Assembly (NCBI GenBank): GCA_964555955.1
Contig: CAZKUM010000002.1
Location: 1 to 30,368, forward strand
Direction: 5' to 3'
DNA length: 30,368 nt
Origin: an uncultured Candidatus Saccharibacteria bacterium
Lineage (GTDB): Bacteria > Patescibacteriota > Minisyncoccia > Minisyncoccales > Staskawiczbacteraceae
Shown: positions 3,058 to 26,393 of the stretch, one piece after another
How the letters are laid out: each line of letters opens with the position of its first letter
How positions within the stretch are numbered: position 1 is the first letter of the stretch
The notes under the pieces: generated by a model
Seen by the model: the letters and a program-made list of their open reading frames with translations, nothing else
Database searches by the model: none
What the model was told of the DNA's origin: nothing
Translations under genes and position numbers: made by a program

Positions 3058-3576
3058 ATGGAAGAAATGAAACCTGCCAGCGCAGGCGAGGAAAAATATG
3101 TTAGGCCAACATGGGATGAATATTTTTTAAATTTGATAGAACCAATTGGTAGAAGAGCAACTTGCGACCGCGGAAGAAGCGGCTCTATAATTGTCAGTCC
3201 CGGGCATACAATTATAGCCACGGGGTACGTAGGATCTCCTCCTGGCCAACCGCATTGTGATGAAGTCGGGCACATGATGAAAACTATAATACATGAAGAT
3301 GGAACTCAAACTCAGCATTGTGTAAGGACATTGCATGCGGAAGAAAACGCAATTTTACAATGCGCAAAAGATGGCATAAGGCTTGATGGGGCTACAATCT
3401 ATTCAAAAATGGTTCCGTGTTATAATTGCGCAATGAGAATTATAAGAGTTGGAATTAAAAGGGTTGTTTCAACAAAAAGATATCATGCAGATGGAATGTC
3501 TAGGAAATTATTTAAAGATGCCGGAGTAGAATTAGTTGTGATTGATGACTCTGTGCAGGAATATAAAAATCAATAA
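3058..3576 (+). CDS. dCMP deaminase (ComEB-like)
   Basis: RPTWDEYF, RRATCDRG, ATGYVGSP, zinc motifs LHAEENAI and PCYNC. Confidence 0.92.
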   Translation: MEEMKPASAGEEKYVRPTWDEYFLNLIEPIGRRATCDRGRSGSIIVSPGHTIIATGYVGSPPGQPHCDEVGHMMKTIIHEDGTQTQHCVRTLHAEENAILQCAKDGIRLDGATIYSKMVPCYNCAMRIIRVGIKRVVSTKRYHADGMSRKLFKDAGVELVVIDDSVQEYKNQ

Positions 3577-6808: not shown

Positions 6809-8284
6809 ATGGCATATAAACCAACAATTGGGTTAGAAATTCATGCGGAATTAAAAACAAAATCAAAAATGTTTTGTTCCTGCAAAAATGACCCGGATGA
6901 AAAACGGCCAAATTATAATATTTGCCCGGTTTGCACAGCGCAACCCGGAAGTTTGCCAGTGGCAAATGAAGAAGCAATAAAAAAAGTTATTAAAACAGGG
7001 TTGGCTTTAAATTGCAAAATCGCAGAAAAATCAAAATTTGACAGGAAAAATTATTTTTACCCGGATTTGCCAAAAGGATATCAAATTTCGCAGTACGACC
7101 AGCCATTATGTGAAGGCGGATTTTTAGAGATTAAAGATAGAAAAATACGAATAACAAGAATACATTTAGAAGAAGATACGGGAAGTTTAATGCATCCGGA
7201 AAATACGGACTATTCATTGGTTAATTTAAATAGAGCAGGAGTGCCTTTAATGGAGCTTGTCACAGAGCCAGATATTACTTCGGGTAAAGAAGCAAGGGAA
7301 TTTGCAGAAGAGCTTCAAATTATTTTAAAATATTTGGGGGTTTCTGATGCAGATATGGAAAAGGGCCAAATGAGGGTTGAAGTAAATATAAGTATAAGCA
7401 AGGGGAAAACACTGGGTACAAAAGTTGAAATTAAAAATTTGAACTCATTTAAAGTTGTTGAAAAAGCAGTTGATTTTGAAATAAAAAGACAAGAAGAAGT
7501 TTTGGAGTCTGGAGAAAAAATTGTTCAGGAAACAAGGGGCTGGCATGACAAAAAAGAAATAACATTTTCGCAGAGAGAAAAAGAAGAAGCGCACGATTAT
7601 AGATATTTTCCAGAGCCTGATTTACCTCTAATGAATTTTGAGAAAGATTATATAGAAAAAATAAAAGCAGAAATACCCGAATTGCCGGCAGGCAAAAGAA
7701 AAAGATTTGCTAAAGAATATGGCTTGGATACAGGATTAATTGAGATTTTTGTCAGTAATAAAGATTTAAGCGAATATTATGAAAAAGTTGTTTCTGAATT
7801 TGAGGAGTGGTTGAAAGACGAAGGGGAAAAGCCCCACGAAAAATTATATAAGTTAGTTGCTAATTATTTAATATCTGATGTACAGGGTTTATTGCAAGGC
7901 AAAGAGTTTAAGGAATTCTCCGCCCAAGGCGGACCAGCCTCGGGCTGGAAAATTACTCCAGAAAATTTTGCAGAATTTATTAAAATGATTTATAAAAATG
8001 AAATTTCAAGCAAAGTGGCTAAAATGGTTTTAGCTGATATGTTTAATACGGGGTCAGACCCATCAACTATTGTAGATGAAAATAATTTAAGGCAGATGTC
8101 AGACGATTCTGAACTTGAAAATATTATAAAAGAAATTATTTTAAAAAATCCAAAAGCAGTTGAAGATTATAAAAAGGGCAAACAAAATTCTCTGCAATTT
8201 TTAGCAGGGCAGGTGATGGCAGTTACAAGAGGCACTGCTAATCCCGGGAAAGTCCGCGAACTTTTGAGTAAATTATTGAAATAA
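6809..8284 (+). CDS. gatB: Asp/Glu-tRNA amidotransferase subunit B
   Basis: IGLEIHAEL, FDRKNYFYPDLPKGYQISQ, RIHLEED, NRAGVPLMELVTEP, EIKNLNSF and YRYFPEPDL. Confidence 0.98.
   Translation: MAYKPTIGLEIHAELKTKSKMFCSCKNDPDEKRPNYNICPVCTAQPGSLPVANEEAIKKVIKTGLALNCKIAEKSKFDRKNYFYPDLPKGYQISQYDQPLCEGGFLEIKDRKIRITRIHLEEDTGSLMHPENTDYSLVNLNRAGVPLMELVTEPDITSGKEAREFAEELQIILKYLGVSDADMEKGQMRVEVNISISKGKTLGTKVEIKNLNSFKVVEKAVDFEIKRQEEVLESGEKIVQETRGWHDKKEITFSQREKEEAHDYRYFPEPDLPLMNFEKDYIEKIKAEIPELPAGKRKRFAKEYGLDTGLIEIFVSNKDLSEYYEKVVSEFEEWLKDEGEKPHEKLYKLVANYLISDVQGLLQGKEFKEFSAQGGPASGWKITPENFAEFIKMIYKNEISSKVAKMVLADMFNTGSDPSTIVDENNLRQMSDDSELENIIKEIILKNPKAVEDYKKGKQNSLQFLAGQVMAVTRGTANPGKVRELLSKLLK
7919..7948. repeat. 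Tandem double-hairpin element within gatB (encodes SAQGGPASGW)
   Basis: TCCGCC-CAA-GGCGGA followed directly by CCAGCC-TCG-GGCTGG. Confidence 0.85.
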
Positions 8285-8291
8285 TTAAATC

Positions 8292-8334
8292 AAAAAAACA
8301 GCCCCAACTCGCGTAAAGCAAGCTGGGGCTTTTG
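8292..8334. terminator. Bidirectional terminator between gatB and the convergent orphan gene
   Basis: A-tract, AGCCCCA...TGGGGCT stem, T-tract. Confidence 0.75.
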
Positions 8335-8349
8335 GTTTGGCGGAGGGCC

Positions 8350-8727
8350 CTAGTATTGGGGTTTTGGCGTTGGGTCGGCGGCTCCGCCGAAATTTTCGAA
8401 TGGATTCGCGTGGCGCCCAAGCCCGTAGGAAAAGCAAGGAAGAATTCTTGGAGGAGTTGCTCTGTTTCCTAGCGGGCAAACCCTACGAAGAATTTTCAAC
8501 ATTTCTTTGTCTGGCATTCCTCCATAAATCCAGACTTCTCCGTTTTCAAGAATCGCAACTGTACAGCCGTCATCACAGCCCCAATGGCCGAGATGAAACT
8601 GAGGCGCTTGTATGGGCTCCTCTTCGTCCGATGTAGCATCGTAAACTGGCAAGCCGGTCACGTGAATGAACTTTTCCCTTACAAGCTCGTTCCTTTGGTC
8701 CACTAGTGGCAGTGTCGTCGTAGCCAT
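8350..8727 (-). CDS. Hypothetical protein, 125 aa (likely start ATG 8727)
   Basis: GGAGG SD 7 nt upstream, its own promoter and a terminator. GC-richer than its neighbours. Confidence 0.65.
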   Translation of the reverse strand: MATTTLPLVDQRNELVREKFIHVTGLPVYDATSDEEEPIQAPQFHLGHWGCDDGCTVAILENGEVWIYGGMPDKEMLKILRRVCPLGNRATPPRILPCFSYGLGRHANPFENFGGAADPTPKPQY

Positions 8728-8786
8728 AAATAGGCCTCCCTTATGCAAAAGTGAAAGAACAAGTATTGGTTAAAATCCAATAATTA

Positions 8787-8815
8787 ATCATATCATTTTT
8801 CAATGAAGATGTCAA
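8787..8815 (-). promoter_or_regulatory. Promoter of the 125-aa orphan, overlapping the miaA 3' end
   Basis: On the minus strand: TTGACA (8815-8810), 17 bp spacer, TG-A-TATGAT (-10 at 8792-8787). Confidence 0.7.
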
Positions 8816-9770
8816 TAGCGTGTATGATTTTTTTATAATCGTCCATCCAATTTATTTTTTTATCTTTTTTAAACCATGTCATCTGCCGCTTTGCATAATG
8901 CCAGGTATTTGCTTTTATAATTTCTGATGCCTGCTCTAATGTTGTTTTTTTACCCGCCCCGTTTTTTTCGGGGTTTAAATATTCAATTATTTCGCGGTAT
9001 CCAATGGCGTCAAAGGCTTGTTGATAGCCGCCAGCCTCGACGCTAGGCGGGTATTTTTTTATTAAATTTTTTACTTCTTTGACTAATCCGTTTTTTATCA
9101 TTTCGTCAACGCGCTGATTTATGCGTTTTTGTAATTCTTCTTTGGGAACTGAAATTCCAATTTCCAAAACGTCAAAAATTGGGTTTCCTTGTTTTCTTTG
9201 CAGAGAAAATGGTTTTTTAGTTAAAAGGGTGACTTCTAAAGCCCTTATAACTCTTCGTGGGTTTTTTGGGTCAACAATATAAGCTGATTCAGGGTCAAGT
9301 TTTATTAGTTTTTTAAAAACGTAATTTAATCCATATTTTTCTATATCTTTTTCAATTTTTACCCGCAAAAAAGGATCTGGCTTAACTTTTGGAATATCAA
9401 GATTTTCGGCTACCGCCTTTATATAAAGCCCTGTGCCGCCAACTAAAATTGGCAGTTTATTTCTTTTTAAAATTTGGTTTATTTTTTGTACAGCGTCATT
9501 TTTGTATTCGGCTACTGTATAATTTTGATTTGGTTTTTTAATGTCTAAAAGCCAGTGGGGAACTTTGCATTGTTCTTTTTTTGTGGGCTTTGCAGTGCCA
9601 ATGTCCATGCCTTTGTAAATTTGCCTTGAATCAGCCGAAACCACCTCTGCGCCGTTAATGCCAAGTTTTTTAAATCGTTGCCCTTCGGCTATGCTCAGGG
9701 CCAATTTGACGGACAAATTGGTTTTCCCAGACGCAGTTGGCCCTAAAATTACAATTAATTTATTTTTCAT
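8793..9770 (-). CDS. miaA: tRNA dimethylallyltransferase (start probably ATG 9770), with three palindromic inserts
   Basis: ILGPTASGKT, VSADSRQIYKGMDIGTAKP, LVGGTGLY, RRVIRALEV, AIGYRE and YAKRQMTWF. Confidence 0.97.
   Translation of the reverse strand: MKNKLIVILGPTASGKTNLSVKLALSIAEGQRFKKLGINGAEVVSADSRQIYKGMDIGTAKPTKKEQCKVPHWLLDIKKPNQNYTVAEYKNDAVQKINQILKRNKLPILVGGTGLYIKAVAENLDIPKVKPDPFLRVKIEKDIEKYGLNYVFKKLIKLDPESAYIVDPKNPRRVIRALEVTLLTKKPFSLQRKQGNPIFDVLEIGISVPKEELQKRINQRVDEMIKNGLVKEVKNLIKKYPPSVEAGGYQQAFDAIGYREIIEYLNPEKNGAGKKTTLEQASEIIKANTWHYAKRQMTWFKKDKKINWMDDYKKIIHAIDIFIEK
8957..8973. repeat. Hairpin within miaA (encodes PEKNG)
   Basis: CCCCG-TTTTTTT-CGGGG. Confidence 0.5.
9028..9050. repeat. 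Palindromic element within miaA (encodes PPSVEAGG)
   Basis: CCGCC-AGC-CTCGAC-GCT-A-GGCGG. Confidence 0.75.
9680..9701. repeat. Palindromic element within miaA (encodes ALSIAEGQ)
   Basis: GCCCTTCGGCTATGCTCAGGGC; a variant of 6533-6551, in the opposite orientation relative to its host gene. Confidence 0.8.
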
Positions 9771-11037
9771 TAATAATTTCGCCATTTAAGATAAACGGAT
9801 AGGCTTCGGTAATTTTTACCTTAACTAATTTTCCTAAAAGGTTTTTTGCAGATGCTATTTTTATTGTTTTATAGTGTTCGTTTTTGCCAAACCAATTTTC
9901 GCCTCTTTGACTATCTATTAAAACTATTGTTTCTTTGCCAATTATTTTTTTGTTTTTTTCCAAAGCAGTTTGTTTTAAAATTTCTGTTAAAACTTTTTCC
10001 CTGCGTTTTTTTTCAATAATTAAAACATTGTCTTTTAATTTGGCGGCGGCAGTGCCGGCTCTGGGCGAGTATTTATTTATATATGCCATATCAAACTTAA
10101 TTTCGCGGAATAATTTTGCAGTATTTTCAAACTGTTTTTTTGTTTCGCCAGGAAACCCCACAATAATATCTGTTGATATAGAAATATCTGGAATTTTTTC
10201 TCTTAATTTTTTAATTTTATTTTTATAGTCTTTTACAGTGTAATGCCTGTTCATTAATTTTAAAACCTTATCATCGCCGGCTTGCACTGGCAAATTTAAG
10301 TAAGGCGTAATTTTGCCCTGCCTACCGGCAGGCAGGCTCCAGTTTGCCATTGCATTTATAACTTCGTCGGTAAAATCTTTTGGGTGGCTTGAAGTAAACC
10401 TTATCCAAAACTTTCCTTTGATATTATTTACTATTTTCAAAAGCTCTGCAAAAGTTATTTTACCATCTTTATAACTATTAACGTTTTGCCCCAAAAGCCA
10501 GATTTCTTTATAGCCCTCACTAATAAGATTTTTTATTTCTGAAATTATTTCTTCTGCCGGACGTGAGATTTCACGTTCGCGAGTGTAGGGAACAACGCAA
10601 TATGCGCAAAAATTATTGCAGCCTGTCATTATTGGCACATTAGCTGAAAATTTATTTGAATATTTTGGGGCGATATTTAAATAATCGCTCGGCAGGTTTT
10701 TAAAAATTTGTTGCCCCGCTAAAATATTAGGAAGTTCTGTAATATTTTTTATATCTAAAATATAGTCAAAAATTTCTTCAAATTTTTTCTTGTCTTTTTT
10801 TAGCACGCATCCGGTTAAAACAGTTACTGGTTTATTTTTCTTTTGTTTGAGTTTTTCGACAAGGCCATAAATTCTGTTTATGGCAGATTGCCTTACCGAG
10901 CAGGCATTAATTACAACCAAATTTGCATCAGCCATATCTTTGGCAGGTTTGTATTTTAAGTTTTCTAAAACTGCGGCAATTCTTTCAGAATCCGATATAT
11001 TCATCTGGCATCCGTATGTTATAACGTGATATTTCAT
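9760..11037 (-). CDS. miaB: tRNA-i6A37 methylthiotransferase
   Basis: ITYGCQMN, NACSVRQSA, radical-SAM motif GCNNFCAYCVVPYTRERE, LLGQNVNSY, DIIVGFPGET and a C-terminal TRAM domain. Confidence 0.96.
   Translation of the reverse strand: MKYHVITYGCQMNISDSERIAAVLENLKYKPAKDMADANLVVINACSVRQSAINRIYGLVEKLKQKKNKPVTVLTGCVLKKDKKKFEEIFDYILDIKNITELPNILAGQQIFKNLPSDYLNIAPKYSNKFSANVPIMTGCNNFCAYCVVPYTREREISRPAEEIISEIKNLISEGYKEIWLLGQNVNSYKDGKITFAELLKIVNNIKGKFWIRFTSSHPKDFTDEVINAMANWSLPAGRQGKITPYLNLPVQAGDDKVLKLMNRHYTVKDYKNKIKKLREKIPDISISTDIIVGFPGETKKQFENTAKLFREIKFDMAYINKYSPRAGTAAAKLKDNVLIIEKKRREKVLTEILKQTALEKNKKIIGKETIVLIDSQRGENWFGKNEHYKTIKIASAKNLLGKLVKVKITEAYPFILNGEIINEK
10317..10336. repeat. Palindromic element within miaB (encodes LPAGRQG)
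   Basis: CCTGCCT-ACCGGC-AGGCAGG, with perfect 7-bp arms. Confidence 0.85.
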
Positions 11038-16625: not shown

Positions 16626-17177
16626 ATGTCTGATTTAAAAGAAAAAATATTATTATCGCTTTTGGCTGGAATTGCATTTGGATGTGCAGTTACTCCTAGC
16701 CAGCAGAACAGAGTTTTAAAATCGTTTGCCAAAATTTGGGGTACTAATAATAAAGAAATTTCAAAGGAATTAAGGACTCTGAAGCGAAATCAATTAATTA
16801 AAAAGATTATCCGAAAAGACGAATCTACATATAATTTAGAATTGACCGAAAAAGGTAAACTAAAAGCATTAGATTATTATTTTTTCAGAAAATTAAAAAT
16901 TAAAGATAAAAAATGGGACGGCAAATGGCGTATGCTGATTTTTGATGTGCCAGAGCGTTTACGCAACGGAAGAAATGCCTTGAGATGGAAAATTAAGAAA
17001 TTGGGGTTTTATGAATTGCAAAAAAGTGTTTTTATAATTCCTTATGAATGCAAAAAAGAAATAGATTTTGTTGTTCATTATTTCAATTTAAAACAGTATG
17101 TTTATTATGGTATTTTTGAGATAGGGGACGAAAGAACAAATAAAAAATTAATGAAAACATTCCAAATCACAGATTAA
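16626..17177 (+). CDS. PaaX-like protein: winged-helix-like region plus a Cas2/VapD-like domain, with no CRISPR context
   Basis: LRTLKRNQLI...LELTEKG (wing), WDGKWRMLIFDVPE, RNALRWKIKKLGFYELQKSVF. Confidence 0.85.
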   Translation: MSDLKEKILLSLLAGIAFGCAVTPSQQNRVLKSFAKIWGTNNKEISKELRTLKRNQLIKKIIRKDESTYNLELTEKGKLKALDYYFFRKLKIKDKKWDGKWRMLIFDVPERLRNGRNALRWKIKKLGFYELQKSVFIIPYECKKEIDFVVHYFNLKQYVYYGIFEIGDERTNKKLMKTFQITD

Positions 17178-17246: not shown

Positions 17247-20200
17247 CTATGATTCCCGCGGAACAAGAATTTCTTGCGCGTCGTCGGCTACAATTTTAAT
17301 TTCGCCATTTCGGTCGTCAACGCGGCCGGCAACAAAAATTATTTTATTTTCTTGCAAAGCAACAGGATTTCTTTCTAAAAGATTTGGGAAAATTACAACT
17401 TCTGTTTTGCCGGTTAAATCTTCAAGTTTCATAAACAGCATTGGCTTGCCGTTTTTAGTGATAATTTTTTTAACAGAAGAAACTAACCCGCCAACAATAA
17501 TTTTTTTATTTACAAAACTTGCGTCAATTCTTGAAATTGGCGTTGTTTTATTTTCAAAAAGTTTTTTAAAGCCGTACAAAGGGTGCGAGCTAACGTAAAG
17601 CCCAAGCAGTTCTTTTTCCCAGCCCAGTTTTTCAAAGTTGCTGGCAGGCGTGGCCGGTTCTAATTTTATTTCACTATTGATTTTTACTCCAGCTGACGCA
17701 AAAAGCCCCATTTGGTTTGAATTATTGTTTTTGTTGTTTTCTCTTGCAATTTCAAGCATTTTTTCTAAGTTTGTCAGTAATTGGTTTCTTTCGGCAAACT
17801 CGTCAAAAGCTCCGGCTTTTATTAAAGCCTCCATTGATTTTTTGTTTAAATCTTTAGATTTTACTCTGTGTATAAAATCGCTAATAGATGCAAATTTTCC
17901 GTTTGCTTTTTTTTCTTCAACAACTGCGTCTATAATATTTACCCCAACATTTTTGATGGCTAATAAACCAAACCTAATTTGATTTTTGCCCTCAACAACT
18001 GTAAAGTTTTTTAAAGATTCATTTATGTTTGGAGGCAAAACTTCAACATTCATTTTTTTGCACTCGTCAATTAAAAAGGCAATTCTTTCAACATCTGTTC
18101 TTTCTGAAGTTAAAACTGAAGCCATAAATTCAACAGGGTAGTGAGCTTTTAAGTAGGCTGTTTGGTAGGCAATTGTGGCATAAGCTGCAGAGTGCGATTT
18201 GTTAAATCCGTAAGCTGCAAAAGGTAAAATCCATTGCCATAATTCTTCGCCAACTTTTTTTGAAGCGCCATTTTTTACAGCTCCTTCAATAAATTTTGTT
18301 TCTTGAGCGTCTAAAAGATTTTTAATTTTTTTACCAACAGCTTTTCTTAAAACATCAGCTTCGCCCAAAGTAAACCCGCAAACTTCCTGGGCAATTTTCA
18401 TAAGCTGTTCTTGATAAATGCAAATGCCCTGTGTTTCTTTTAATATGGACTCTAATTTTGGATGCAAGTATTCTATTTTTTGACCTCCATGCTTTCTTGA
18501 AATATAATCTGGAATAAATTGCATAGGGCCCGGGCGATATAAAGCTACCATAGCGGTAATATCTTCAAAAGTTGTAGGATGAAGTTCTTTTAAATATCTT
18601 TTCATGCCATCGCTTTCTAGCTGAAAAACAGAAGTTGTTATGGCATCTTGCAAAAGTTTAAAAGTTTTTGCGTCGTCATAAGGAATTTTATCTAAATCAA
18701 TTTTTAAATTATTATGCAAAACATAAATGCGAGCCAAGGTGTCTTCTATTATGGTAAGGTTTTTTAACCCTAAAAAGTCCATTTTTAAAAGGCCTAAGTC
18801 TTCAATGCTGTGCATTTCGTATTGAGTTATAATGCCTTCTTCAGACTGGGTTGACCTTTGCAATGGGACAGAGTTGGTTAAAGAGTCGGCCGAAATCACA
18901 ATTCCGCAGGCGTGAGTTGAAGCATGGCGGGCAACTCCTTCAAGTTTTTTGCCTAAATCAATTAAGCGTTTTGCCTGGTCATCCATTTTATACATATCTT
19001 TAAACTCTGAAACTTTTTCTAATGTTTCTGCCAAATCCATGCCAGTTGGAATCATTTTTGCCAGCGAGTCGCAATAAGAATAAGTGTACTGCAAAGCCCT
19101 GCCAACGTCGCGAATAACAGCGCGGGCCGCCATTGTTCCAAAAGTAATAATTTGGGCTACATGGTCTTGGCCGTATTTTTCTGCAACATATTTTATAACC
19201 TCGTCTCTTCTTCTGTCGGCAAAATCTAAATCAATATCAGGCATAGAAATTCTTTCAGGGTTTAAAAATCTTTCAAAAAGCAAATTATGTTTTAAAGGGT
19301 CAACATTAGTGATATTGGTTAAATAGGCAACTAATGAGCCGCCGGCAGAACCTCTGCCGGGCCCCACAATTATTCTGTTTTCTTTTGCCCAGTTTACAAA
19401 GTCTTGCACAATTAAAAAATATCCTGCAAAGCCGGTTTTTTTAATTACGGAAAGTTCATAATTCATTCTTTCAATAATTAGATTTCGGTCAATATTTTCG
19501 CCCGCCTGCAACGCCTTCGGCTCGACCGTCTCGCTACGAGAAGCGTTACGGGCGGGCGTAGCCGATGCGGGCAGGCCAAATCTTGTTTTAAGCCCTTGCC
19601 AGCAAAGTTCTTCTAAAAATTGTTCTGCTGTTTTTTCTTCTGGCAACGAGAAAGTAGGCAATTTTGTTTTACCAAGCTCAATTTGCAAATTACACAGATC
19701 GGCTATTTTTTGCGTGTTTTCAATTGCCTCTGGGGTGTCTTTAAAATGTTCATGCATCGCTTCAGGGCTTATCATTGAAAAATTATCTTGAGCCATAGAC
19801 AGCCTTTCTGGGTCGTTTGCGTCAGCTCCCGTGTTTATTAACATTAAAACATCTTGGGCTTCTGCGTCTTCTTTTCTTAAATAATGTATGTCGTTTGTGG
19901 CAACTAAAGGTATGCCGGTTTTTTTAGAAAGTTCTATAAGCCTTTTGTTTGCGGTTGCTTGTTCTGGTATATTGGCATGGTGCTGTAATTCTAAATAAAA
20001 GTTTCCTTTGCCAAAAAAGGATTCATATTTTTTTGCGGTTTCTTCAGCTTCTTCGTTTTTGTTAGACAAAAGAAGCCGTGGAATTTTTCCCTGAATGCAG
20101 GCGGATAACCCAATTAAGCCCTCGGCATATTGGCTTAAAAGTTCTTCATCTATTCTGGGCTTGTAATAAAAACCTTCTAAATGCGCTTTAGAAACAAGCT

Positions 20201-20561: not shown

Positions 20562-20622
20562 ATTTTACTTTTTATGTTCTGCGCGGTCAACTATTGACAA
20601 TATATTATTTAGGGTGTATAAT
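20562..20622. promoter_or_regulatory. Back-to-back divergent promoters for dnaE (minus) and the small peptide (plus)
   Basis: Minus strand: TTGACC (20590-20585), 17 bp, TAAAAT. Plus strand: TTGACA (20594-20599), 17 bp, TATAAT (20617-20622). Confidence 0.8.
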
Positions 20623-20669
20623 TAAAATATAGGGAATCAAAACCTTAAATCCTGTTTTGGAGATGAAAG

Positions 20670-20795
20670 ATGACGGTTAAGGAATCGAAAGAAGTTAGGG
20701 GATCAAAGTGGGTTTTAGCTATGTTTATAGCTGCTTTTGCGGCTGTAATCTTGGGTATTGCCCATGCGGCGATTTGCCAGATGTTGGGAAAGTAG
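20670..20795 (+). CDS. Small hydrophobic peptide, 41 aa (below the ORF-track cutoff)
   Basis: MTVKESKEVRGSKWVLAMFIAAFAAVILGIAHAAICQMLGK; consensus promoter, GGAG 7 nt upstream, and a downstream terminator. Confidence 0.65.
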   Translation: MTVKESKEVRGSKWVLAMFIAAFAAVILGIAHAAICQMLGK

Positions 20796-20863
20796 GCAGG
20801 GACCCTCTCCTATAAGAGCGGTTCGCAAGATGGCCGGTTGAGCTTGTAGCTCCTGGCTGTCGG

Positions 20864-20901
20864 GGCCGTTGTGTGTCGCGCGACATGCAACGGCCTTTTT
20901 T
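20864..20901 (+). terminator. Long-stem intrinsic terminator
   Basis: GGCCGTTGTGTGTCG / CGACATGCAACGGCC (two G-U pairs) followed by T6. Confidence 0.85.
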
Positions 20902-23860: not shown

Positions 23861-24325
23861 ATGAATAAGTCATTAGCATTTTTATTAGTAATCGCAGGAG
23901 TAATTATTTTTGTTTTGGGCGGAGGCGCTGGCGTTTTTTATCAAACACAACAGAGCCAATTGGGAATTATAGGTGCTCCGCAAAATAGCGCGGCAGAAAC
24001 TGCGTTAAAATCATTGTCTTCAAAAGTTATTCCCTCAATTGTAGCTTTTGGCGAAGTGTCAAACATATCTGGAAAAAATATTACATTAAAAAATGCTGGG
24101 GAAAGTTTAACAATAAAAATTGATGACAATGCGCAAATTTCTTCTTTTAATGCAGCCCCGGCAAAAGGAACAACTGCTCCTACTCAAGCAAAAGCTGAAT
24201 TTAAAGATATTAAAATTGGCAATACCTTAAGTATAAATTTAAGGCTTTTATCTAGCGGCACTTTAAAGGGCATGTCGGTTGTTATTGTTAATTCTTTGCC
24301 AAACACAAACGTTGGTCCAAAATAA
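23861..24325 (+). CDS. Membrane-anchored protein with a small beta-rich (OB-fold/DUF5666-like) domain
   Basis: N-terminal TM with GGGAG; GEVSNISGKNITL...IKIGNTLSINL. Confidence 0.75.
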   Translation: MNKSLAFLLVIAGVIIFVLGGGAGVFYQTQQSQLGIIGAPQNSAAETALKSLSSKVIPSIVAFGEVSNISGKNITLKNAGESLTIKIDDNAQISSFNAAPAKGTTAPTQAKAEFKDIKIGNTLSINLRLLSSGTLKGMSVVIVNSLPNTNVGPK

Positions 24326-24338
24326 TATTATAGAATTT

Positions 24339-26393
24339 ATGGCAAAAATAAATTCGTTTTACTTGTTTTCTTTTGGATTAATTGCCTTATTAGCTGGTTT
24401 TGTATTATATTCGTCTATAGATCCGGCTGTGATTATAACTTCTGCGCAATCTTCAAGCTCTGGTTCAAGCTCCAGCTCAAGTTCCAGCTCAGGCTCTAGC
24501 TCAAGTTCAAGTAGTTCCAGTTCAAGTAGCTCTAGTTCAAGTAGCTCTAGTTCAAGCAGTAGTTCAAGTTCAAGTAGCGGAGGATCGTGCGACCCTAGTT
24601 GCCAAGTTGGAACAGTTAGTGATAGTTTTTGTAAAGATATTAATACCGTTGCTAATAGAGATACAATAACAACGTGCGACTTAGGTGTTTGTAATACTAG
24701 CGAATTGGTTCAATGGGCTCCTTGTCCGCCTCCAGAGTTGATAGAAAAATATTGTGGGCCCAATGGAACTATTAAAGAAAAGAAAAGAGTTTATTATTGC
24801 CGGCAAAATGGCAATCAAGCCGCTTGCGTGGCAGGAGTTCAATCTGGCACAACAGGCAACTGTGGCGCATGCGGTCCTACAGGAAACACACGATGCGGAG
24901 GCGGAGCTGGTCAATCGAGTATAATGATAGAAGTAAACTGTCCGTCTTGTCAGGGAGCTGGAATATGTTTTCCTAATCTTAGCTGGAAAAAACTTGCAGA
25001 TTGCCCCATTAAACAAGATATAACATTGCCTCCAATGTGCGTAAATAATGTTTTATGCAGCGTTGTAATAAGCTGGCCTGGCACTTGCACTGAGCTTTTC
25101 CCTGGCAGTACTGCCGCCTGTGATGGCGCAACAGTTGGTGTTGTTTGCACAGACCCTTGCAGCGGTGGCGGCGGAGGCGGTTCTAGTTCAAGTTCAAGCA
25201 GTTCTAGTTCAAGCAGTTCTAGCTCAAGTTCAAGTAGCAGTTCAAGCAGCTCAAGTTCAAGCTCCAGCGGAGGCGGCCCTTGTGTAGATGGCAGTCACTC
25301 TGAGTGCATAGGCAACCAATGCGTTTGTGTTAATGGCACTGGTATAAATCAATGTAATTATCCTGGCTCTTATTGTTCTGGGTCTAGCAGTTCAAGCAGT
25401 TCTAGCTCAAGTTCAAGTAGCTCTAGCTCCAGTAATGGGGGAGGCACTGGCTGTATATTAAATGGCAAAGGAGTGCCTGATGGCACTACTAAATCTTGTT
25501 TCTGTGGCGGCACTACTCCTTGCGTAAATGGCGTATGGGCTCCTTGTTCAGGTTCTCATTCTTCCTGTGATGGCGGCCAATGTAAATGTGTTTCTGGCGC
25601 AGGCGATGACCTTTGCGCAACAGACAGCGCTTGTGTGCCGGCAAACGGCTATCCATACGCAGATCATTTGCAAGCTTTCACTGGTAGTTATTGCACAGGA
25701 ATTCCAGGCGTTGGAACTGCCATATTTAGGTGGAATTATGAACATACTGCAAAAATGGGAGAGGTAAAATTTGAAATTCAGGTAGATGATAATCCTAACT
25801 TTTTATCGCCTGAAGTTGACAGGGTTTATGGCAATCTTAACTATCCGGCAGGGGCTTTAAATGAACAAATGATTTTTGTGCAATTAGATCCTTCGTCTCA
25901 TTATTGCGACACTAATAATTTGTCTAACCAATATCCTAATAACCAATGCGACCATATAAACTTTAACACAGCTTATTATTGGAGGGTAAAAGTGTGGGCA
26001 AAAGATTATACTGCTTCAGAATGGAAGCAGGCTTCACAAACATTTACATACGGATACACTCATCCTTGCCCTAACCCAAACTATAATTTTAATCCAACTA
26101 CTCCGCTTGTAAACAGTTCAACTTCTCTTGTAGACACTTCTGTTTGTTATACCTCCACCGGAACTTATTCTTGCAACACAGGGCCAAATACTTCATACAC
26201 TTGGGATTTTGGCGACGGTTCCGCTAAAAGTTATACTAAAGGAAATGTTTCTCATACATATACTTCAACCTGTTCTCATTACTCAAGCTTGAAAGTTTGC
26301 GACGAAATAGGCTGCGGTTATATTTCTAAAAATGCTTTTATCCTTCCTTGCTCAAGCACCTTGCCTGGCAACAAAGAAGTTCCGCCATTCTAA
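24339..26393 (+). CDS. Large surface protein: N-terminal TM, three poly-Ser tracts, Cys-rich modules, an Fn3/Ig-like region and a C-terminal PKD domain (start probably ATG 24339)
   Basis: Ser tracts at 24450-24578, 25182-25268 and 25383-25433; YYWRVKVW (Fn3-like); YTWDFGDGS...NVSHTY (PKD). Confidence 0.85.
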   Translation: MAKINSFYLFSFGLIALLAGFVLYSSIDPAVIITSAQSSSSGSSSSSSSSSGSSSSSSSSSSSSSSSSSSSSSSSSSSSSGGSCDPSCQVGTVSDSFCKDINTVANRDTITTCDLGVCNTSELVQWAPCPPPELIEKYCGPNGTIKEKKRVYYCRQNGNQAACVAGVQSGTTGNCGACGPTGNTRCGGGAGQSSIMIEVNCPSCQGAGICFPNLSWKKLADCPIKQDITLPPMCVNNVLCSVVISWPGTCTELFPGSTAACDGATVGVVCTDPCSGGGGGGSSSSSSSSSSSSSSSSSSSSSSSSSSSSSGGGPCVDGSHSECIGNQCVCVNGTGINQCNYPGSYCSGSSSSSSSSSSSSSSSSSNGGGTGCILNGKGVPDGTTKSCFCGGTTPCVNGVWAPCSGSHSSCDGGQCKCVSGAGDDLCATDSACVPANGYPYADHLQAFTGSYCTGIPGVGTAIFRWNYEHTAKMGEVKFEIQVDDNPNFLSPEVDRVYGNLNYPAGALNEQMIFVQLDPSSHYCDTNNLSNQYPNNQCDHINFNTAYYWRVKVWAKDYTASEWKQASQTFTYGYTHPCPNPNYNFNPTTPLVNSSTSLVDTSVCYTSTGTYSCNTGPNTSYTWDFGDGSAKSYTKGNVSHTYTSTCSHYSSLKVCDEIGCGYISKNAFILPCSSTLPGNKEVPPF

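Follow-up and report, generated by a model that had tools for sequence, protein, structure and literature searches.

How does a GC-rich palindrome of 75 nt come to lie in frame inside the gene of a replicative DNA polymerase? The question is raised by a 30,368-nt stretch of DNA (hereafter the window) from a Candidatus Staskawiczbacteria-like member of the Patescibacteria, a small groundwater bacterium. The window has a GC content of 35%, and its open reading frames (ORFs) are of the housekeeping kind, e.g. gyrB, nusG, L11, thyA, folA, gatB, miaA, thrS, dnaE, rnhB and nusB. The palindrome lies in dnaE, which encodes the alpha subunit of DNA polymerase III. The families PHP, DNA_pol3_alpha, finger, HHH_6 and OB are recorded for its product in Pfam, and the top DnaE homologues bear the names Candidatus Staskawiczbacteria or Patescibacteria. 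We consider it probable that the palindrome is selfish hairpin repeat DNA, i.e. a 39-nt element with an inverted 36-nt element of the same superfamily at its dyad centre, which landed in a linker of DnaE.

The insert in the polymerase gene

An earlier reading of this DNA from its letters alone, the original prediction, described a 25-residue in-frame addition after GLKTRFG, and the gene bears it out. The 75 nt encode the peptide LPASATPARNASRSETVEPKALQAG in frame and without a stop codon, flanked by ...GLKTRFG and ENIDRNLIIERMNYEL. The limits of the insert are 19501-19575 by the element ends and 19500-19574 by codons (Table 1). All the strings quoted in that prediction are present on the coding (minus) strand, namely the outer string CCTGCCCGCATCGGCTACG, a second left arm CCCGCCCGTAACGC, a mini hairpin and a closing arm GCGTTGCAGGCGGG. 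The insert is the most GC-rich 75-nt stretch in the window, with a GC content of 71% vs 36% in the remaining gene and a third-position GC content (GC3) of 76% vs 30%. The proposed folding check gave -44.2 kcal/mol (z = -3.5) for the RNA and z = -3.6 for the DNA, with 0 of 200 shuffles equally stable in either case. The closing arm can indeed pair with either left arm, as the minimum-energy fold uses the outer one in RNA and the inner one in DNA. An identical insert was seen in Logan contigs from two runs (X1 and X2).

The 25 residues are missing in all 119 of the closest DnaE orthologues, in an alignment of the 120 best homologues including the window's own (81-91% identity by BLASTP). The comparison of orthologues, one of the checks named in the original prediction, returned neither the insert nor a conserved 25-residue segment in these relatives. 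Even the sister sequence P0002, which is 94% identical over the aligned columns, is without the insert. At the DNA level (alignment A3) the window differs from P0002 and from P0042 by a clean 75-nt indel. The empty site reads TTY GGC before and RAW after the junction, and the comparison of the filled and empty states leaves only 1 nt of ambiguity.

The dnaE gene of P0080 has two copies of a perfect 18-nt palindrome, CCTGCCTGCGCAGGCAGG (LPAQAG), one at exactly the nucleotide where the window has its insert and the other at a second site. This palindrome is of a different subfamily and in a lineage that is not sister to the window. In a neighbour-joining tree of the 120 DnaE sequences the window groups with P0002 and P0080 with P0042. 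The sites of both P0002 and P0042 are empty, and the clade common to the window and P0080 takes in 96 of the 120 sequences; the insertions were therefore two separate events. The shared nucleotide was rejected as a proof that targeting is site-specific, and it is weak evidence for site specificity: given a single favoured reading frame and about five codons of loop, we estimate the chance of coincidence at ~1/5. The dnaE gene of the sister genome L003 has its own 16-nt perfect palindrome, TCCGCCAGCTGGCGGA (PPAGG), which the window does not have, and P0036 has a different 75-nt hairpin with an AT-rich loop at that same site.

The site of the insert appears to be a permissive one. The alignment to the Pol III alpha of Thermus aquaticus (2HPI) breaks exactly at residues 310/342, where the Thermus protein has ~58 residues of its own, and close DnaE relatives are also length-variable there. 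In an AlphaFold2 model, which is poor overall (mean pLDDT 52.8) and used for the local coil only, a helix at residues 294-310 is followed by a coil at 313-338 (pLDDT <50) and a helix at 341-358. The insert is read most simply as a flexible surface loop that the protein tolerates, with much Ala, Pro, Ser and Arg, and it is presumably neutral for the polymerase. The composite would have arrived recently in this length-variable surface linker between the two helices, and would survive there because it has a length divisible by three, no stop codon in the host frame and a flexible-loop peptide.

The protein might not be lengthened at all if the 75 nt were cut out of the mRNA or skipped over by the ribosome, like the byp elements of Magnusiomyces mitochondria. 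The mRNA hairpin is very stable (-44 kcal/mol), and there is a precedent in mitochondrial coding-region GC clusters that are skipped in translation (PMC8811140). However, bypass and splicing need neither a length divisible by three nor a stop-free frame, and the insert and all the coding copies examined elsewhere have both, unlike the mitochondrial clusters that are skipped. The insert is also too small for a self-splicing intron, and its 25 residues are far below intein length. We regard an untranslated insert as very improbable. An intein (whose blocks take >130 aa) and a group I or II intron were likewise rejected as identities for a 25-aa, 75-nt insert; Rfam gave nothing at the gathering score and only sub-threshold matches to generic hairpins.

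One hairpin element inside another

The outer part of the insert is a repeat. We scanned one genome per GTDB species with its left 21-mer and found 20 loci, of which 19 are in 11 Patescibacteria genome bins (metagenome-assembled genomes, MAGs) and the 20th is a chance match in an actinomycete. The bins are labelled as Staskawiczbacteria, Nealsonbacteria, Moranbacteria, Parcubacteria and 'Saccharibacteria'. A plain 39-nt unit is present at 13 of the loci, one of which (L014) is a tandem pair, and at six loci the unit contains extra sequence, always at the identical internal point. The unit is also found on four contigs in run X3 and 14 contigs in run X4. The outer 19 + 20 nt of the window's insert match this unit at 39 of 39 positions. 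In groundwater contigs of runs X1 (1035 nt) and X3 (1343 nt), the sequence of window positions 19555-19575 is joined directly to that of 19501-19518, giving the 39-nt unit as CCTGCCCGCATCGGCTACGCC followed by GAAGGCGTTGCAGGCGGG between unrelated flanks.

The inner 36 nt, CCCGCCCGTAACGC-TTCTCGTA-GCGAGACGGTCGAG, are a guest in this host. They consist of a 14-nt arm, an 8-nt loop and a decayed 14-nt arm, and are inverted relative to the host. The window-type guest is found alone, with intact 9-bp arms CCCGCCCGT...ACGGGCGGG and in dissimilar, mostly AT-rich flanks, on a groundwater contig of run X19; compared with these arms, the distal arm of the window's guest has two substitutions. A 36-nt family with the same arm and loop lengths stands alone in L015, L018, L007 and L012, and the guest is ~75% identical to the stand-alone copy at L015:3298-3333 by our count (alignment A2). 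In the same alignment the 39-nt unit can be matched to the 36-nt family by allowing three single-base insertions, which places host and guest in one superfamily.

The guest lies within 1-2 nt of the host's dyad centre, in the host's apical loop, and the dnaE insert is a true nest of one hairpin element inside the loop of another. The claim that one element was inserted into another is thus upheld by a host that occurs alone at the 13 loci and on the X1 and X3 contigs and by a guest that occurs alone on the X19 contig. The original prediction was right about the nesting but not about the closing arm, which it took to be shared. The host has a complete right half of its own, CCGAAGGCGTTGCAGGCGGG, and the guest a partly decayed right arm of its own, GCGAGACGGTCGAG; pairing between the guest's left arm and the host's closing arm is possible only because host and guest are homologous members of one superfamily.

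These matches also bear on whether the insert arose on the spot, from dnaE sequence that was duplicated, inverted or copied by template switching, or is an assembly artefact. The two similar left arms, 19 nt apart, do resemble a local duplication. But the outer part is identical, 39/39, to a unit at unlinked loci of other genomes, the inner part is found alone elsewhere, the GC content of the insert is twice that of the gene, and the same sequence is in contigs of two runs. In our judgement a local or artefactual origin is refuted by the unit at unlinked loci and the stand-alone guest, and we give it practically no weight. The GC peak, the clean indel and the identity of the outer 39 nt to a repeat at many unlinked loci put the insert far beyond chance.

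At least four different guests have been placed at one central point of the 39-nt host, i.e. the window type, the L015/L021 type, one of 69 nt (L007) and one of 55 nt (L012). Since a target of 39 nt takes up only a tiny part of a genome, recurrent guests at one point are a strong argument for a preference for the loops of resident copies. The prediction that existing copies are preferred targets is therefore supported indirectly. The 75-nt composite of the L015/L021 type occupies five distinct loci (L015, L019, L021, L022 and L064), which indicates that composites probably also spread ready-made. The further idea, that protein loops grow stepwise, is not shown at dnaE; no host-only allele was found, and the P0080 palindrome is of another subfamily. 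A search with a hypothetical host-only DnaE segment returned only short fragments. A 64-aa concatenated peptide query for other insert-bearing proteins gave no candidates, and a 30-aa insert query against 1.84 billion representatives gave one weak match, to the repetitive ORF P0121.

The repeat family and its copies in genes

The members of the superfamily have the termini CCYGCCYGC...GCRGGCRGG in common and differ in their interiors. The terminal inverted repeats are imperfect and 9-14 nt long, CCYGCCYGC(AAYGC); the elements begin with CCYGCC, and (G/A)TAG is conserved in the apical loop. Members of 18, 20-21, 36, 39, 42, 52 and 75 nt were found, and multi-level nests in L007 and L012 exceed 100 nt. 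A metagenome scan with the short, degenerate pattern CATCGGCTACGCCHGCCYG gave 119 loci, 116 of which are chance matches in GC-rich contigs; L045, L062 and L064 are real. In three loci of one bin (L004, L006 and L009) the 39-nt unit sits inside a larger repeat of at least 170 nt, present in three copies, whose second internal hairpin varies between copies as if modules were exchanged.

At least 12 copies lie within long ORFs that have Pfam domains. In-frame copies are present in genes for DprA, protein-isoaspartate methyltransferase (PCMT), a MiaB-like protein, the Pol III delta' subunit (HolB), a radical-SAM enzyme, a prepilin peptidase and an IleRS-like protein. The in-frame copy in FemAB is a tandem pair, that in LeuRS is a 75-nt composite, and a class-V aminotransferase has both a 39-nt and an 18-nt copy in frame. 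The coding copies are read in three reading frames or orientations, as LPASATPKALQAG (five copies), as PARIGYAEGVAGG (four copies) and from the other strand (one copy). All the coding copies examined have a length divisible by three and no stop codon in the host frame. Copies are also found between genes.

A second member of the superfamily in the window is a 21-nt copy (LPAGRQG) in a MiaB-like radical-SAM gene, which the L003 orthologue does not have. L173 has a related CCTGCCTACCGGCAGGCAGG elsewhere in its MiaB-like gene.

Across seven housekeeping genes in synteny, compared in as many as nine related loci, we found over 15 GC-rich hairpin inserts, of several families, that are lineage-specific. 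Such inserts are a general, fast-turnover feature of these genomes. A 30-nt double hairpin, TCCGCC-nnn-GGCGGA then CCAGCC-TCG-GGCTGG (SAQGGPASGW), lies in gatB at 7919-7948 (+) of the window and is present also in the gatB of L175 and in miaA of L174 (18528-18557), forming a second dispersed in-frame family. The gatB copy is an older insertion, because it is common to the window and L175 yet diverged by substitutions. In the dCMP deaminase ORF (3058-3576), CCTGCCAGCGCAGGCGAG occupies 3073-3090 (+) from the third codon, directly after the start codon (MKPASAGEE...), and looks like a decayed copy of the 18-nt palindrome. In miaA, a small insert AACCCCGAAAAAAACGGGGCG at 8955-8975 (-) with the hairpin CCCCG-A7-CGGGG is lineage-specific among six orthologues. 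The sister genome L003 has hairpin inserts of its own that the window is without, i.e. EGLARSAAPERAMA in thrS, EAASAPPWRRFGE in rnhB and HPAPEQVRCGG in miaA.

Table 1. Positions of dnaE, the parts of its insert and a second superfamily member in the window
Feature	Positions	Strand	Basis or remark
dnaE, DNA polymerase III alpha, 1086 aa	17247..20507	-	insert-bearing gene; intact ORF
Whole composite palindromic insert, 75 nt, 25 aa (residues 312-336)	19501..19575	-	indel, GC content, fold
Host left half of the 39-nt unit, CCTGCCCGCATCGGCTACG	19557..19575	-	identical to stand-alone L008, L014, L017, L020 and others
Guest, 36 nt	19521..19556	-	missing from 39-nt copies; stand-alone relatives
Guest left arm (second left arm), CCCGCCCGTAACGC	19556-19543	-	sequence read
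Apical mini hairpin TCTCG-TAG-CGAGA within guest	19529..19541	-	sequence read; paired in DNA fold
Host right half, CCGAAGGCGTTGCAGGCGGG, including closing arm	19501..19520	-	matches 39-nt unit
Closing arm, GCGTTGCAGGCGGG	19514-19501	-	sequence read
Second superfamily member, 21 nt, LPAGRQG, hairpin CCTGCCTGCCGGTAGGCAGG, in MiaB-like radical-SAM gene	10315..10335	-	absent in L003 orthologue

Probable movement of the elements and their place among known repeats

The elements have the hallmarks of mobile DNA: they are dispersed over unlinked sites in many genomes, have their ends in common but differ inside, form tandems and nests, and are present in some lineages and not in others. The dnaE insert would then be a selfish repeat that has no coding capacity of its own. 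We suggest that a trans-acting enzyme, with its gene elsewhere, moves the elements either in the form of single-stranded or hairpin DNA or into such DNA. A resident copy's apical loop, once extruded, would be a hot spot, leading to nests and tandems, and purifying selection would keep only in-frame copies in permissive gene loops. Nine of the ten coding copies are on the same strand as the coding strand, where ~60% would be expected from stop codons alone (p ~0.05). As the genes of such genomes mostly run with replication, this bias hints at strand-specific insertion, which would suit single-stranded DNA.

Several results weigh against this proposal. No transposase or HUH-type gene was found in the window, in the host ORFs or beside the L007 and L012 clusters. 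Filled and empty dnaE sites show no target-site duplication (site 2 of P0080 being unambiguous), and the left flanks of 18 copies have no conserved motif. Our searches found no second locus for the window-type composite, and no host-only or empty dnaE allele of the same population was seen among contigs of depth 3-5. The near-identity of the 39-nt unit across distant Patescibacteria lineages could mean a selected function and not selfish spread. The translation of the 25 residues is assumed from the length and the stop-free frame, a search for RNA runs with the locus having found none, and the low confidence of the DnaE model counts on the same side.

The main rival to an enzyme-moved element is templated repair at hairpin tips. 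Hairpin or cruciform tips would be cut (e.g. by an SbcCD-type nuclease), or forks would stall there, and the break would be filled by copying a related hairpin from another place through microhomology of the GC-rich arms. Such repair would leave nests and tandems behind as by-products, and there would be no transposase dedicated to the elements. This fits the missing transposase, target-site duplication and fixed flank motif, the guests placed exactly at the dyad centre and the homology of host and guest arms. It also fits the inconstant boundaries, since site 2 of P0080 is CTGCCTGCGCAGGCAGGC and site 1 can be read as CCTGCC...GGCAGG. However, repair of this kind does not readily explain first insertions into AT-rich coding DNA without a resident hairpin or priming homology, and the identical 39-mers in 11 species-level genomes require an efficient copying or spreading route. 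We hold templated repair to be unlikely, though less so than the other alternatives to transposition.

Another view is that the hairpins are selected cis-acting signals that benefit the cell, with dnaE merely tolerating one of them. The hairpins could serve as a binding site for a protein of the nucleoid, of replication or of uptake, as a signal for RNase III or mRNA stability, or as a transcription pause. The 39-nt unit is near-identical across distant lineages even in the conserved mismatches of its arms, and the strand bias of the coding copies would agree with a signal. But the copies are lineage-specific and missing at the same sites in sister genomes, they lie in unrelated genes in three frames as well as between genes, older copies decay by substitution (as in gatB, window vs L175), and no Rfam family matches. 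A benefit of this kind seems to us quite improbable, and selfish hairpin repeat DNA remains the reading that we prefer.

We speculate further that there is a phylum-wide superfamily of 18-39 nt GC-rich hairpins in the Patescibacteria, which would move by targeting hairpin loops without a linked transposase, build hierarchical nests (18 to 39 to 75 nt and more) and be adapted to genes. The adaptation to genic life is suggested by the common size classes, whose lengths are divisible by three and which contain no stop. We offer this only tentatively, as a possibility more doubtful than the reading of the dnaE insert itself.

The left 21-mer and a guest 20-mer have no match in viral contigs, and phage and plasmid collections have no match to the element. 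A right-arm 18-mer gave two matches, both by chance. The 18-nt palindrome is on 25 viral contigs, most of them GC-rich, and is thus not diagnostic.

The functionally closest match appears, by analogy, to be the Rickettsia palindromic elements (RPEs), which are in-frame palindromic repeats in housekeeping genes that add a peptide at fold-compatible positions (PMC10969869). Like them, our elements are short palindromic repeats that code for nothing by themselves and lie in frame in genes unrelated to one another, in a bacterium with a small genome. However, RPEs are ~100-150 bp long, form ten families known from Rickettsia and have a conserved peptide module, whereas here the units are 18-39 nt, the composite is 75 nt and copies are read in three frames. 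The present elements are also very GC-rich in an AT-rich genome, nest in themselves and reside in Patescibacteria, and we know of no sequence relationship to RPEs.

The GC clusters of yeast and other fungal mitochondria are mobile-like GC-rich palindromes of 30-60 nt in an AT-rich genome, with shared termini, tandems and merging or shuffling; in-frame clusters lead to size polymorphism of the var1 protein (PMC8811140, PMC4478555). Our elements resemble them in their GC contrast (71% vs 35%), the tandem in L014, the nests in L007 and L012 and the in-frame copies. They differ in being bacterial and in lacking any visible counterpart of the mitochondrial AG/TAG terminal repeats, which are taken as target duplications. 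The element belongs to neither the RPEs nor the yeast mitochondrial GC clusters.

Repetitive extragenic palindromes and their mosaic clusters (REP/BIME) are imperfect GC-rich palindromes of 20-40 nt with conserved mismatches, often in tandem or inverted clusters, and a HUH enzyme specific for single strands is believed to move them (PMC3733652). The similar size, the conserved mismatches and the tandem clusters are common to both. But REPs are extragenic while many copies here are intragenic, and the REP motif GTAG/CGTC is at the foot of the 5' stem while (G/A)TAG is here in the apical loop. No gene for a RAYT (Y1 HUH transposase) was found among the ORFs of the window or those adjacent to the clusters, which are a small part of any genome. 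The MITEs of bacteria (miniature inverted-repeat transposable elements) are small and non-autonomous with terminal inverted repeats, and some form in-frame fusions in genes (PMC10969869). Our elements are similarly small, with terminal inverted repeats and no ORF of their own. MITEs such as Correia, ERIC and BOX are, in contrast, usually 100-600 bp with target-site duplications and a parent insertion sequence (IS) that has the same ends. None of these was found here, there being no such parent IS in the Pfam-scanned ORFs of our loci or among the phage and plasmid collections.

Among the places taken by hairpin elements in the mitochondria of sponges and chytrids are coding and rRNA regions. 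They differ in being organellar and of other sequence, and we know of no nesting hierarchy described for them in like manner. They are described as families of short hairpin and double-hairpin repeats with repeated invasion of genomes (PMC2800124). An IS200/IS605-derived palindromic element was rejected, as the 18 left flanks have no fixed tetra- or pentanucleotide and there is a single hairpin and not two subterminal ones. Integron attC sites, CRISPR repeats and DNA-uptake sequences were rejected for lack of their defining features. Full-text literature searches turned up no description of elements of this kind in Patescibacteria, nor the sequences themselves.

Some other features of the window deserve mention. 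The spacer between dnaE and rnhB, at 20594-20897 (+), has a perfect 12/12 sigma-70-like promoter (20594-20622), a 41-aa ORF with a hydrophobic helix (20670-20795) and a 16-bp nested GC hairpin with a T run (20862-20897). Their arrangement in a row suggests a small independent transcription unit divergent from dnaE. On the other side of dnaE is a gene of the PaaX_M family (Cas2-like fold) at 16626-17177, which is next to dnaE in L001, L003 and L172 as well and was not called in L173-L175. At ~8284-8793 the genes converge, those up to 8284 being on the plus strand and those from 8793 on the minus strand, and there is a change of sign in the GC skew. The region also has a terminator-like hairpin at 8300-8330 (-) and, at 8339-8390, a GC-rich island, and it may be that of the replication terminus. 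A PKD-domain protein (24279-26393) contains, at 24497-25454, long serine-codon runs (AGT TCA AGC repeats) that are not of the same length in the L003 orthologue.

In-frame selfish palindromes in essential genes were previously a curiosity of Rickettsia and mitochondria. They are now seen in the Patescibacteria, a very large radiation with small, gene-dense genomes, in units several times shorter than the RPEs. The nests record where new copies land, i.e. at the dyad centre of resident hairpins, and so provide a testable clue to the mechanism. The lineage-specific inserts in housekeeping genes of close relatives imply a rapid turnover of protein loops, and they bear on the annotation of genome bins, the trimming of phylogenomic alignments, structure prediction and assembly breaks at repeats. 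If there is indeed a phylum-wide superfamily, it would be a major source, so far overlooked, of variable protein length in the bacteria with the densest gene content, their replicative polymerase included.

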